Origin: Candidatus Multivorans sp. | GTDB lineage: Bacteria; Acidobacteriota; Thermoanaerobaculia; Multivoradales; Multivoraceae | DNA length: 64,000 nucleotides | Direction: 5' to 3' | NCBI GenBank assembly: GCA_965247095.1 | Contig: OZ251997.1 | Location: 2,688,001-2,752,000 of the forward strand | Shown here: positions 13,087 through 16,822 of the stretch, in pieces | How the letters are laid out: each line of letters opens with the position of its first letter | Position numbering within the stretch: position 1 is the first letter of the stretch | Notes under the pieces: model-generated | The model's database searches: none | The model's input: only the letters and a program-made list of their open reading frames with translations | What the model was told of the DNA's origin: nothing | Program-made: the position numbers and the translations under genes

Positions 13087-13541
13087 GTCCGGCGATTCGG
13101 CGCGGCGCGATCCTCGACATCATCGGCGAGCGGCCGGTGTCGAGTCACAAGGAACTCGTGCGGGCGCTCGACCGGCGCGGTATCCGAGTGTCCCAGGCCA
13201 CCGTGTCGCGCGACGTGCGCCGTCTCGGCCTGGTCAAGGTGCCGCTCGCGGGCGGCGGCTCGCGCTACGCGCCGGCGGAGCAGGCCGCGAGCCCGCCCCG
13301 GCGCGACATCGAGCGGGCGCTGCGCCAGTTCGTGACCGGGTTCGACCAGGGCGAGGCGCTGATCGTGCTCAAGACCCGCAGCGGCCACGCCAACGCCCTC
13401 GCCGTCGCCCTCGACCAGACCGACTGGCCCGAAGTCGCCGGCACCCTCGCCGGCGACGACACTGTCCTCGTCGTCGTCAAGAGCGCCGCCGACCGGGAAC
13501 GCATTCGCGAGTCGCTCGCAGCGCTGCTGGAAGGCGACTGA
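13083..13541 (+). CDS. argR: Arginine repressor
   Basis: VSQATVSRD and GTLAGDDT motifs; ATGA overlap with argH. Confidence 0.95.
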   Translation: MSPAIRRGAILDIIGERPVSSHKELVRALDRRGIRVSQATVSRDVRRLGLVKVPLAGGGSRYAPAEQAASPPRRDIERALRQFVTGFDQGEALIVLKTRSGHANALAVALDQTDWPEVAGTLAGDDTVLVVVKSAADRERIRESLAALLEGD

Positions 13542-13619
13542 GCTGGCGGGAGTAGTATCGAGGTAGCCGTACGGCGTCGGCCGAGCGGCAGGGATAAGAG
13601 TCAGGCGATGTAGTCCGAG

Positions 13620-15136
13620 ATGCCGCGACCAAACGCCTTCAAGGCAAACGCCAGCTTCTTCAGGATGATCGCCCTGGGTGCCGTGGGCGCTCAGGGCGTT
13701 CAGGACCACCTGAGCGCGTTTGGACACGAGATGGTGGAACTAGAGCGCGGTTCACTCTCGACGAAGATCTGGCAAGACGTGAAGAGAAAGCGGGTCCGGA
13801 TACCGGACCTGTGCTGCACGCTATGTGGTGTTCGAGTGGAGTCGCGAGCGAAGACAAGGCCCGACTTGCGAATGTCGCACTCTACGCAAGACGCGGAACG
13901 TGCTTGGGACTACGGCATGCTCGACGGCGACTGGGTTGCATTTCCCGTTCTTTCGTCGCAAGAAGACTACTGGAGCGCGGGGGCGCTTGATGCGGAGCGT
14001 TCGCTCTGGCGCGAGCGGATCCGCACTTCGTGGAAGAGCGACGGCTATCTCAACTTTTTTGAAGTGGCGTCATTTCGAGGTGTGCCGTTTGAGCAAATCG
14101 GGCGCAAGGGGGTCACCGAAGGTTCGGAGATCCAGATCAAATGGTCGGCGCGTTTTGCTCCTGAGGATGGTCGCGTCACACGGCTGGAAGAGAAGAAGAT
14201 TCACTACACGACCGTTGGCGCCCCCGAGCGTCAGAGGCACTATCGCCTCGGCTCGAGCCTGAGTCCGGTTCTTCACGAAGGACAGAGGTTCGAGAAACAC
14301 CAAGTCATAGCTGCCCAGGCGCCTTCGCTGGACGTGGCGGAGCTGCAGTGTCGTGGGGGGTGCGATCGGCGACGCATTGCGGAGATGATTCGGTCGCGCG
14401 AGCGTACGAGTCGCTTTACAGGGTGCAAGCTGGCAAGGCTCCTGAGGAGCGGGACACTGGTGGACGCGATTCGGGAACTGGCTCAGGACGCCGTGGAAGA
14501 CACCTATGTTCGGATGGAAGCGCGGTCGTTTCTCTGTGCTGTAGCGGGCGAGAATGCCGATGTTTGGTTTCGCGAGATTCTGCTCGACCACCCAGACGAT
14601 CAGATGCGGCTGGAAGCCGTTGTCGCGCTTGCAGAGGTGCAGACACCGAGTGCCTTCAGGCTGTTGAGTCTCGTCCTGGAGGATCGGACGCAGGCTCTGT
14701 ACCTGCGGAGCGCATGCGCTTGGGCCATCGGCTGCCACCCCACGCGGGACGCCGCCGAGTGCCTAGTCCGCGCATTCTCGGATATCAGTGTGGAGGTGCG
14801 CAGCGAGGCGCTGGCGGCGCTCGAGAATCTGGCCGACTCAGGGCTCCAGGCTCTCGTTGCCGGCCTTGGCCATAGCTCGACCGGCATAGCTGCGGGTCAG
14901 CCGAGGCAATTCGCAGAATCGGTCGCCTTCCCAGGAGTCAGGTTGAGCGGGTCGTCGAGATGGCGGAGAGCAGCCGGTCAACTTGGCCGACATGGGCCTT
15001 GGGCCATCTTCCGAGCGACGACGTGAAGCCCCTCATCGCGACGCTTCAGGAGAGACGCCCCGACGTTCACTTTGCGCTCTCGGTGTTGTGGACCTTCCTG
15101 GAGAGCTGGGTGTCAAGAGACTGGTCGGCGCGATGA
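13620..15136 (+). pseudogene. Putative restriction-type nuclease (PD...E with CxxC) fused to C-terminal HEAT repeats; single frameshift near 14896
   Basis: IPDLCCTLCGVRVESRAK near the N-terminus; HEAT-like repeats (VRMEA, MRLEAVVALAEV, LRSACAWAIG, VRSEALAALENL). The -1 frame from 14897 (SAEAIRRIG...WSAR*) ends in TGA overlapping the MTase ATG. Could be a sequencing error rather than a true pseudogene. Confidence 0.6.
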
Positions 15137-16158
15137 GCGACCTGTTAGGGACTGGCCCTTGCTCCGAACTGAACCTGTGTCACACCCCTGTGTACCAGAC
15201 CCGCTATGGGGCTTGCTACCTCGGCGACTCGCTGAAGCTGATTCGCGAAATTCCGGCCGAATCGGTCGACTTAGTCGTGACCTCTCCGCCGTTTGCGCTG
15301 CTCAGGCAGAAGGCATACGGCAACAAGGGGCAGGCCGAGTACGTGGATTGGTTGTGTGAGTTCGGTGGGGAGGTCCTTCGTGTCCTTCGTGACACGGGGA
15401 GTTTCGTCCTAGATCTCGGTGGCGCCTACAAGCGGGGAGTGCCCGTTCGTTCTCTCTATCAGTATCGTGTTCTGCTGAAGCGATGTGACGAGACTGGCTT
15501 CCACCTCGCGGAAGAGTTCTTCTGGCACAACCCGGCGAAGCTACCTTCGCCAATCGAGTGGGTGAACAAGCGAAAGATACGAGCCAAGGACTCGGTGGAT
15601 ACCGTTTGGTGGCTTTCGAAGACGGAGTGGCCAAAGGCAGATGTTAGACGAGTGGTGGTTCCCTACTCGGAACGTATGAAGAAGCTCCTGCGAAACCCAG
15701 AGAGCTTCTACAGCCCCAAGAAGAGGCCATCCGGCCACGAGATCGGCAAGAGCTTCGAAGCAGAGAACAAGGGCGCAATACCTCCCAATCTCCTTCAGAT
15801 CGCAAACACGGACAGCAACTCTACGTACCTGCGTCTTGCGAAGCTCTTAGGGGTTAAGAGACATCCAGCCCGTTTTCCTCTGGGTCTTCCCAAGTTCTTT
15901 GTCGCCTTCCTTACCGATCCGGGTGATCTGGTTCTGGACATATTTGCTGGGTCAAACACGACCGGAAGAGCCGCAGAGGAACTCGGCCGCAGATGGGTCG
16001 CAGTGGAGATTGACAAGGACTACGCCGCCGGCTCGGCCCTTCGCTTCATGGATCGACTGCGTTCGTCCGAGGTGCGAGAGACGTTTGACCGAGTATGTCG
16101 GGGAGAGGCACCAGATTTGTCGGGACCGCCGTCGTTGTGGGAGCAGGTGGCTCCTTAG
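15133..16158 (+). CDS. Beta-class N4-cytosine DNA methyltransferase, M.PvuII-like
   Basis: TSPPFAL, NPAKLPSPIEWVNKRKIRAKD, WWLSKTEWPK, RPSGHEIGKSF, IPPNLLQI, HPARFP, DIFAGSNTTG; colinear with M.PvuII as I recall it. Confidence 0.9.
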   Translation: MSDLLGTGPCSELNLCHTPVYQTRYGACYLGDSLKLIREIPAESVDLVVTSPPFALLRQKAYGNKGQAEYVDWLCEFGGEVLRVLRDTGSFVLDLGGAYKRGVPVRSLYQYRVLLKRCDETGFHLAEEFFWHNPAKLPSPIEWVNKRKIRAKDSVDTVWWLSKTEWPKADVRRVVVPYSERMKKLLRNPESFYSPKKRPSGHEIGKSFEAENKGAIPPNLLQIANTDSNSTYLRLAKLLGVKRHPARFPLGLPKFFVAFLTDPGDLVLDIFAGSNTTGRAAEELGRRWVAVEIDKDYAAGSALRFMDRLRSSEVRETFDRVCRGEAPDLSGPPSLWEQVAP

Positions 16159-16192
16159 GCCCTAAGGGTGATTCGCGCCGAGGGCGGCAACT

Positions 16193-16822
16193 TCAGCCGC
16201 CCTGAACAGCCCGCCGCACCTGCCAGGACTGCCGCGTCTCCTGCGACGAGAAGCGCTGCTCCGCCCAGGGATCGCCGTAGGTGTGGTACCCGTTCTCCTC
16301 CCAGAAGCCCCGCTCGTCGGCGTTCAGGAACTCGATGCCGGAGACCCACTTGGCGCTCTTCCAGGCGTAGAGGTGGGGCACCACCAGGCGCAACGGACCG
16401 CCGTGGTCGGGCGCCAGCGGTTCGCCGCCGTGACGGTCGGCGAACAGGGCGTGCTCGGACAGCAGGTCTTTGAGCGGCAGGTTCGTGGTGTAGCCGCCGT
16501 AGCAGTGGAGCATCGCGTGGGTGGCGTCGGCGGTGGGCCGCACGGCCGCCAGGACGTCCCGGGTCGAGAACCCCGACCACGGGTTGTCCAGGGTCGAGAA
16601 GCGGGTCACGCAGTGGAAGTCGGCGACGACCTTGCGGCGCGGCAGCGCCTGGAGCGCCTGCCAGTCGAACGCGTGCTCGGATTCGACACGCCCGAACAGG
16701 CGCAGCGCGAACCGGGCCGGATCCACCTCCGGCGTGTCGCCGCAGGAGAGCACGGGCCACTTCTTGGTCACGTACTGGCCGGGGGGCACGCGGTCGTCGC
16801 CGCGATGGGGCGCGTCGTTCAT
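16193..16822 (-). CDS. Sulfite oxidase-like molybdopterin oxidoreductase (YuiH-like)
   Basis: PPGQ....WPVL, DFHCVT.FS, HGGPLRLVVPHLYAWKSAKW, GFWEENGYH.YGDPW. Confidence 0.9.
   Translation of the reverse strand: MNDAPHRGDDRVPPGQYVTKKWPVLSCGDTPEVDPARFALRLFGRVESEHAFDWQALQALPRRKVVADFHCVTRFSTLDNPWSGFSTRDVLAAVRPTADATHAMLHCYGGYTTNLPLKDLLSEHALFADRHGGEPLAPDHGGPLRLVVPHLYAWKSAKWVSGIEFLNADERGFWEENGYHTYGDPWAEQRFSSQETRQSWQVRRAVQGG

Follow-up and report, generated by a model that had tools for sequence, protein, structure and literature searches.

A HEAT-tailed nuclease candidate, disrupted by a frameshift, precedes an M.PvuII-type methyltransferase gene in an islet of Candidatus Multivorans

A two-gene islet lies between argR and an oxidoreductase gene

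The window analyzed here is a stretch of 64,000 nucleotides (contig OZ251997.1, positions 2,688,001 to 2,752,000 of the forward strand; assembly GCA_965247095.1) from Candidatus Multivorans, a genus of Acidobacteriota, class Thermoanaerobaculia. Our subject is a low-GC insertion of 2.65 kb (window positions ~13542-16192) located between argR and a molybdopterin oxidoreductase gene, and the two genes that it carries: a nuclease candidate, referred to here as the partner, and the gene of a DNA methyltransferase that starts where the partner gene should end. An earlier note, made from the letters of this DNA, had described a two-gene islet of atypical codon usage following argR, which agrees with what we found. 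The GC content of the islet is 0.55-0.66 over ~13400-16200 vs. 0.70-0.75 in its flanks, while the gene before it is recognized as argR by Pfam (Arg_repressor_C 7.5e-23, Arg_repressor 3e-16; stop at 13539-13541). The upstream flank consists of argH and argR, and the oxidoreductase gene on the downstream side is convergent. As it stands, the partner open reading frame (ORF; 13620..15026) encodes 468 amino acids (aa), whereas its original frame continues in the stop-to-stop frame 14876..15136, and reading through yields the protein of about 505 aa that the earlier note had expected of a repaired gene (505 aa exactly). The displaced frame is 87% identical to residues 424-505 of the relative P0002 and encodes the same end, SVLWTFLESWVSRDWSAR, that closes the intact relatives. 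The note had also called the pair ATGA-coupled, and the methyltransferase ATG (15133-15135) does overlap the partner TGA (15134-15136) in this manner.

Comparison with related genomes indicates that the islet is an insertion. In the same-genus genomes G010 and G003 the site is empty, with the argR stop located 5-8 bp from the end of the oxidoreductase gene, while the left junction and leader sequence of the window are shared by two orthologous loci (L001 and L002). The partner was absent from 24 of 24 other same-genus genomes drawn, and a methyltransferase at least 91% identical to that of the window occurs in three of the 42 genus genomes (G000, G050, and G055, the last two of which host L001 and L002). 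Within the islet, we found no promoter-like sites and four terminator-like sites, the latter within shuffle expectation. At another empty argR/oxidoreductase site (L020, genome G001), the gap is taken up by an array in which a GC-rich unit of ~30 bp is directly repeated about seven times. The best reading of the islet is that of a horizontally acquired, mobile two-gene Type II restriction-modification cassette. Its features are listed in Table 1.

Table 1. Features of the islet and its downstream neighbor, in window coordinates.
Feature	Position	Strand	Basis
Islet left end: 78-bp leader from argR stop to partner ATG	13542..13619		Empty-site comparison with G010 and G003
Partner gene, in-frame part: residues 1-425 and two bases of codon 426	13620..14896	+	ORF, alignment, model
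Modules of the in-frame part: PD-(D/E)XK-like core, beta barrel-sandwich (~176-236), HEAT repeats from ~residue 250	13620..14896	+	
Frameshift site: GGG, vs. GGGG in orthologues and two related strains	14894..14896	+	DNA alignment, run contigs
C-terminal part of partner gene, out of frame since the deletion: residues 427-505 and TGA	14897..15136	+	Stop-to-stop frame; P0002 87%
Out-of-frame tail now encoded: 42 unrelated residues and stop	14897..15026	+	468-aa ORF vs. 505-aa intact relatives
M.PvuII-type N4-cytosine DNA methyltransferase (putative), 341 aa, intact	15133..16158	+	Pfam, PADLOC, PDB 1boo_A
Islet right end: 34-bp trailer to stop of convergent oxidoreductase gene	16159..16192		Empty-site comparison
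Molybdopterin oxidoreductase	16193..16822	-	Pfam Oxidored_molyb 2.4e-38

The methyltransferase is closely related to M.PvuII

The three blocks that had been recognized from M.PvuII in the earlier note (TSPPF, PSPIEWVNKRKIR, and HPARFP) are all present within the 341-aa methyltransferase. Moreover, residues 13-330 of this protein match M.PvuII itself (PDB 1boo_A) at E 1.4e-130 with a single one-residue gap, and the two are ~57% identical (183/319 columns, counted from the alignment midline). The alignment is strongest in a central block, in which 72 of the 104 columns are identical. Additional matches were obtained to Pfam N6_N4_Mtase (PF01555; 2.5e-39, with a cut-off of 26.7 bits) and to the PADLOC model MTase_II (PDLC03323; 3.1e-149). 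Two motifs can be read directly from the translation: TSPPF, a catalytic motif of the SPPF/Y form, and DIFAGSNTTG, an S-adenosylmethionine-binding motif of the FxGxG type. As judged from its sequence, the enzyme is most probably an M.PvuII-type N4-methylcytosine methyltransferase that protects CAGCTG.

The partner family is strictly linked to PvuII-like methyltransferases

The partner belongs to a sizable family whose public labels are only HEAT repeat or hypothetical protein. Among 8000 candidates scored, 346 proteins were related to it at E <= 0.001, and most of the 120 relatives listed have a length of 503-508 aa. With the N-terminal 250 residues alone, 320 clusters were retrieved at 50% identity, of which 245 reached E <= 1e-10. 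None of the 150 clusters listed exceeds 553 aa, and no larger fusions occur among them. In the C-terminal half, Pfam HEAT_2 (PF13646) matches residues 317-402 at 6.7e-11 (42.8 bits vs. 27.7 for gathering), in agreement with the C-terminal HEAT array that the earlier note had proposed. The N-terminus presents a different picture, as no nuclease model of Pfam, NCBIfam, PADLOC, or PHROG matched the partner, and its first 250 residues found no match in the PDB (E <= 10), PHROGs, the ESM Atlas, NCBIfam, or PADLOC. The PADLOC model HEAT-ARM_XIII does touch the partner (E 1e-05), but over just 87 of 1972 profile positions, which is not a match over most of the model. A tblastn search of plasmid and phage collections with P0002 was negative, as was a metagenome scan with the single protein P0144, a member of a distant branch. 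At the level of listings and abstracts, we found no paper describing the HEAT-tailed partner family, though a REBASE entry is possible.

A PvuII-like methyltransferase gene (62-92% identical) is located directly downstream of the partner gene and on the same strand at all 11 loci from genome contigs, which represent Candidatus Multivorans, candidate division NC10, Planctomycetota, Brocadiaceae, Armatimonadota, and Anaerolineae. A sample of 401 genomes from the phylum of one of these hosts (G062) contained six full-length partners, one of which was the locus already known from that host (L008). At the five new loci the methyltransferase was present in every case (60-71% identical), while four of the partners were just 33-34% identical to that of the window. 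Overall, partner and methyltransferase genes are adjacent at 17/17 distinct loci, the window included, which supports the pairing described in the earlier note. The identities of the two proteins to those of the window also co-vary (Spearman rho 0.80, n=16, with the caveat that related genomes are not independent), and the partner diverges faster (33% vs. 60-64% for the methyltransferase).

No third conserved gene was found among 12 loci compared and no controller (C) protein gene is present in the cassette, whose 78-bp leader and 34-bp trailer leave no room for one, nor for R.PvuII. The Pfam model of the PvuII endonuclease (Endonuc-PvuII, PF09225) did not match the partner at E <= 1. A whole-genome search with PF09225 was likewise empty, although 14 control genomes were equally silent, which renders that search uninformative. 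The cassette is not the PvuII system, given that R.PvuII and C.PvuII are both missing from it, a point on which the earlier note was correct.

The partner N-terminus adopts a predicted nuclease fold

Structure models were obtained for residues 1-290 of the window partner (predicted local distance difference test score, pLDDT, 83.2; predicted template modeling score, pTM, 0.82; low confidence at residues 1-10 and 43-58) and for the full-length relative P0002 (pLDDT 86.1, pTM 0.83). When compared with 48,161 chains using VIA-align, the N-terminal domain was most similar to the homing endonuclease I-Ssp6803I (2ost; Z 8.2, 131 aligned of 148), followed by four entries of Hjc (Z 6.3-7.9), NhoI (Z 7.4), MspI (Z 6.8), DpnI (Z 6.6), single-chain PvuII (Z 6.3), D212 (Z 6.3), and PvuII Y94F (Z 5.8). 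In a second comparison, Hjc (2wcw) reached Z 8.9 with a root-mean-square deviation (rmsd) of 3.0 and 112 of 121 residues aligned. In the first comparison, all matches that covered most of the domain were PD-(D/E)XK-type nucleases or the tRNA-splicing endonuclease subunit SEN15. The models support a PD-(D/E)XK-type nuclease fold with an alpha-beta-beta-beta-alpha-beta core at the partner N-terminus, as the earlier note had suspected; nuclease activity is presumed. In the models, beta insertions break up this core, and two further modules come after it. Residues 176-236 can be superposed over 58 residues on the RNA polymerase beta barrel module (Z up to 10.2, rmsd 1.2, 26-28% identity), for which one might guess at a role in DNA contact, and helix pairs forming a HEAT solenoid span residues 250-495.

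Among 44 aligned sequences, the residues without variation include E40, E42, K55-R60, P62, D63, C66, C69, R72, E74, R76, K78, and S86-H87-S88, many of which lie within IPDLCCTLCGVRVESRAK (residues 61-78). In a wider set of 36 sequences, just 25-45% identical to the first, P62, D63, E74, K78, W51, K57, and R60 are still invariant, while R76, C66, E40, and E42 are conserved at >=90% and C69 falls below that level. The model places P62-D63 ahead of strand 64-66 and E74 within strand 72-75. The earlier note had pointed to a PD...E segment with an embedded CxxC. Judging from these alignments, the PD...E portion is the conserved heart of the family, whereas the CxxC is not universal.

In an alternative reading, the partner would be no restriction nuclease but would assist the methyltransferase by binding DNA or as a scaffold, for example in target loading or regulation, and its PD-(D/E)XK-like core would be catalytically inert. 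An inert core would be compatible with a third motif, E-x-R-x-K, that departs from the usual (D/E)-x-K, with fold Z values no better than ~9, and with the lack of a sequence-level nuclease match. It would be harder to reconcile with the invariance of P62, D63, E74, and K78 across members this divergent, or with the disruption of the partner at 4/17 loci vs. 0/17 for the methyltransferase, a pattern more readily expected of a nuclease that is dispensable or toxic than of a cofactor that is required. The much faster evolution of the partner (33% vs. 60-64% identity) also speaks against an accessory, as restriction enzymes usually evolve faster than their methyltransferases. We consider the accessory role quite unlikely.

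The last HEAT helices form a predicted homodimer interface

Two copies of residues 11-505 were predicted to associate with an ipSAE of 0.70 (0.71, 0.70, and 0.69 in separate runs), whereas the best of three controls scored 0.00. Contacts agreed at >=94% and the pLDDT was 88. Of the solved structures used for calibration, 20 of 30 homodimers and 1 of 23 monomers reached the ipSAE mark, counts that apply only roughly to predictions employing an alignment of our own making. The predicted interface comprises residues 11-25, 47-50, 119-139, 391-398, 421-429, 455-459, and 481-504, and the 25 least-error contacts listed all involve residues 422-498. The best-conserved C-terminal residues are located here, namely A425, G426, E429, W456, and W459 (invariant) as well as L490, W491, F493, S496, and W497 (>=90%). 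The model supports, but does not show, dimerization via the HEAT end of the protein, with an interface formed mainly by the last HEAT helices.

The earlier note had suggested that the HEAT solenoid may sense a phage protein, or may scaffold or regulate the nuclease. If the solenoid detects a phage protein and thereby switches on the nuclease, the pair would be a sensor-type defense system rather than plain restriction-modification. HEAT/ARM proteins do occur among the PADLOC candidate defense models, one of which (HEAT-ARM_XIII) is weakly touched by the partner, and a cassette with no C protein would need some other control of its nuclease. Nevertheless, a strict pairing with a methyltransferase (17/17) is what plain restriction-modification predicts, so no sensor is needed to explain it. 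The predicted self-interface takes in the best-conserved C-terminal residues, the phage and plasmid collections yielded no copies, and no third gene is conserved. Nothing in our results supports the sensor proposal, as the evidence regarding the HEAT tail consists of the predicted symmetric self-interface, and we regard a sensor role as highly unlikely.

A single-base deletion truncates the partner in this strain

DNA alignment with the orthologous loci L001 and L002 revealed that the window partner has lost one G, with GGGG reduced to GGG at 14894-14896. As a result, the protein ends in 42 unrelated residues in place of residues 427-505 and lacks the core of the interface predicted for the dimer. 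Contigs of the sequencing runs X5 and X6 (0.99 of sampled words) are identical to the window at this site with 0 gaps, at depths of 66.5 and 31.4, and no alternative form was reported at a 10% threshold. Conversely, X9 and X1 carry an extra G behind 14893, with X9 exhibiting 74 differences over 2539 bases; thus, two strains 97-99% identical to the window lack the frameshift. X1 is a sponge metagenome by its record. The best reading is that the frameshift is recent and strain-specific.

An assembly or read error, with the gene intact in the organism, might be suspected because the base was lost within a homopolymer and because X5 and X6 may be the data behind the assembly. Against an error stand the independently built X5 and X6 contigs, which match the window at the depths given above, as well as the shortness of a G4 run for a systematic error. 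Furthermore, the partner gene is disrupted at other loci by different, real-looking lesions. In total, it is disrupted at 4/17 loci: the window, L002, and L005 have three different frameshifts, while L033 has an in-frame TAA stop. In L002, a T was lost elsewhere, outside of any run, and in L005 the frame shifts near residue 481. As these three frameshifts are at different sites, they represent independent events. We consider an error highly unlikely. Deletion remnants of the partner also exist (P0095, G399, and G277), whereas the methyltransferase frame is open at 17/17 loci. Since residues 427-505 and with them the core of the predicted interface are lost, the nuclease is probably dead in this strain and the methyltransferase left as an orphan.

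Two minor sequence variants were encountered in the runs. One low-depth contig of X5 (depth 7.9) connects 13819 directly with 13890, and 13948 with 15074, thereby skipping 13820-13889 and 13949-15073. At 85% likeness, it may stem from a relative with most of the partner deleted or from another organism, and it was not used as evidence. Over window positions 15210-16158, X5 and X6 also contain a second, lower-depth methyltransferase variant (~16 depth in X5; 42-64 differences per contig), which shows that this gene also occurs within the sample in a related strain or species.

CAGCTG is severely depleted in the genome and rare in most genomes of the genus

The 4,617,209-bp genome (G000) contains 73 CAGCTG sites vs. 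1243 expected from a fourth-order Markov model (observed-to-expected ratio, O/E, 0.059; z -48), a lower O/E than that of any other of the 64 palindromic hexamers. It is followed by AAGCTT, the HindIII site (O/E 0.21, 120 observed vs. 562 expected). In the window itself, there are 0 CAGCTG sites vs. 19.1 expected. The surviving sites are clustered and lie in DNA of lower GC content, with 16% of them in stretches below 0.62 GC vs. 2% of random positions. Clusters in genome G000 are located at ~2376529-2382024, 3764302-3767746, and 4281460-4283645, each with lower local GC; clusters of this kind are likely to be recently acquired DNA.

Of the 42 genus genomes, the three that carry the islet have the 1st, 3rd, and 4th lowest CAGCTG counts (61, 73, and 86 sites). 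Six exceptional genomes have 509-1959 sites, and all six are devoid of a PvuII-like methyltransferase at E <= 1e-20. These results point to a genus that has long been exposed to CAGCTG restriction, and the depletion fits the site expected for the methyltransferase. Five other hosts of the pair have 692, 2027, 2748, 47, and 79 CAGCTG sites vs. 710, 5716, 7724, 65, and 71 for reversed-pattern controls, with no uniform depletion evident in these raw counts. In two of these hosts, both with genomes of ~4 Mb, CAGCTG and GTCGAC are similarly rare (47 and 65 in G061, locus L006; 79 and 71 in G062, locus L008), which hints at broad palindrome avoidance or an unusual composition.

It is conceivable that the pair is indeed a restriction-modification cassette, but one directed at a site other than CAGCTG, with the genus-wide depletion caused by other systems. 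An identity of only ~57% to M.PvuII would allow for this, and other PvuII-like methyltransferases of the genus, 48-56% identical, have Mrr_cat or helicase partners. CAGCTG is also depleted in genus genomes that lack the islet, while it is not in two hosts of the pair, G059 and G060. On the other hand, the M.PvuII alignment runs from end to end with its single one-residue gap and a central block of 72/104 identical columns, the islet carriers rank among the four lowest genomes, and every genus genome with >500 sites is one without a PvuII-like methyltransferase at E <= 1e-20. A different site seems unlikely to us.

Discussion

Our preferred interpretation, to which we assign a probability of roughly two in three, is that the partner and its relatives constitute a non-canonical family of CAGCTG restriction enzymes, that the HEAT tail serves as a dimerization scaffold, and that the member in the window has been newly inactivated. 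In such a system, the upstream gene family would replace R.PvuII beside an M.PvuII-type methyltransferase. Each subunit would begin with a nuclease core bearing P62-D63 ... E74-x-R76-x-K78 and the invariant basic loop K55-R60, followed by a small barrel-sandwich beta module and the HEAT solenoid. Two subunits would then join through the terminal helices of this solenoid, giving the symmetric dimer needed for a palindromic site. By removing residues 427-505, including the core of the predicted interface, the one-base deletion would have cost this strain its nuclease. What our results show directly is the gene content, the insertion, the family with its strict linkage, the frameshift, and the depletion of CAGCTG, whereas nuclease activity, CAGCTG specificity, dimerization via the HEAT end, and the loss of function are inferred.

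Several of our results weigh against this interpretation. With respect to the nuclease, the partner has no sequence-level link to any nuclease family, an hhalign comparison of its family with the Mrr_cat family gave a probability of 0.15, and a Foldseek search of the PDB returned no match at E <= 0.001. The fold Z values are also middling, as best Z values of 7-8 are typical even when there is no clear relative by the tool's own yardstick. The third motif differs from the canonical (D/E)-x-K in that the residue at +2 from E74 is R76 (>=90%), while the invariant lysine, K78, is at +4. The dimer is a prediction made with our own alignment, and X5 and X6 may be the source data of the assembly itself, in which case they are not independent proof of the frameshift. 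As for the target site, CAGCTG specificity rests on ~57% identity to M.PvuII. A total of 36/42 genus genomes have just 61-301 CAGCTG sites, even though the islet is missing from most of them and many have no PvuII-like methyltransferase at all, while the pair hosts G059 and G060, with 2027 and 2748 sites, are not depleted in absolute terms. The CAGCTG depletion therefore cannot be credited to this islet alone.

If members of the family do cut CAGCTG, they would represent a PvuII isoschizomer of different architecture with hundreds of natural variants, and HEAT-solenoid dimerization would be added to the modes employed by Type II enzymes. A single methyltransferase family would also serve at least three unrelated nuclease partners, namely R.PvuII, the HEAT-tailed family, and the Mrr_cat proteins. 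The window would then record the usual fate of a cassette, in which the nuclease is lost by a single-base deletion, the methyltransferase survives, and an extreme avoidance of CAGCTG persists. More speculatively, the family could be a new structural class of Type IIP enzyme in which the HEAT solenoid is a dimerization device and perhaps a DNA clamp. If the cores act together only once the HEAT ends have paired, then a concentration-dependent dimerization could supply a delay in nuclease activity similar to that provided by C.PvuII. Such a delay, tentative as it is, would explain how a nuclease-first cassette with no controller became established across at least five phyla.

Comparison with known systems

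The closest comparison is with the PvuII restriction-modification system. The methyltransferase is a full-length relative of M.PvuII with probably the same palindromic site, CAGCTG, and R.PvuII and the partner are of the same PD-(D/E)XK fold class (Z 6.3 and 5.8 for the two PvuII entries), subject to the modeling on which the partner fold depends. Beyond this, the two systems diverge. R.PvuII has a chain of 157 residues (1ni0_A), whereas the partner is a protein of ~505 aa with three modules and no Endonuc-PvuII match. The cassette has no controller gene, and its order is nuclease candidate followed by methyltransferase, with overlapping stop and start codons. A hallmark of Type II (IIP) systems, a separate nuclease-candidate gene tightly linked to the methyltransferase across lineages, is present.

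With respect to structure, the best matches to the partner core are two minimal PD-(D/E)XK nucleases, the archaeal Holliday junction resolvase Hjc and the homing endonuclease I-Ssp6803I, both of which act as symmetric oligomers. They have no sequence similarity to the partner, whose core continues into a barrel module and a HEAT solenoid. The likeness of residues 176-236 to the sandwich-barrel hybrid of RNA polymerase beta and to biotinyl/lipoyl domains occurs in a wholly different context, and no function can be transferred from it. A HEAT-like helical repeat solenoid is used on DNA by the AlkD glycosylase family, rather than as a protein-protein sensor. This likeness is a lead for a HEAT tail that might also line a DNA channel.

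Within the genus, three loci (L026, L028, and L029, in G002, G049, and G005) have a PvuII-like methyltransferase (~55% identical) immediately behind a 455-aa protein that ends in an Mrr_cat domain (Pfam 4.2e-10). At two additional loci (L030 and L031), a ResIII/helicase protein adjoins the PvuII-like methyltransferase. The Mrr_cat pairs resemble the cassette of the window in placing an M.PvuII-family methyltransferase directly after a large nuclease candidate that is not PvuII, but their partner is of a different family from the HEAT-tailed proteins, as reflected in the low hhalign probability given above.

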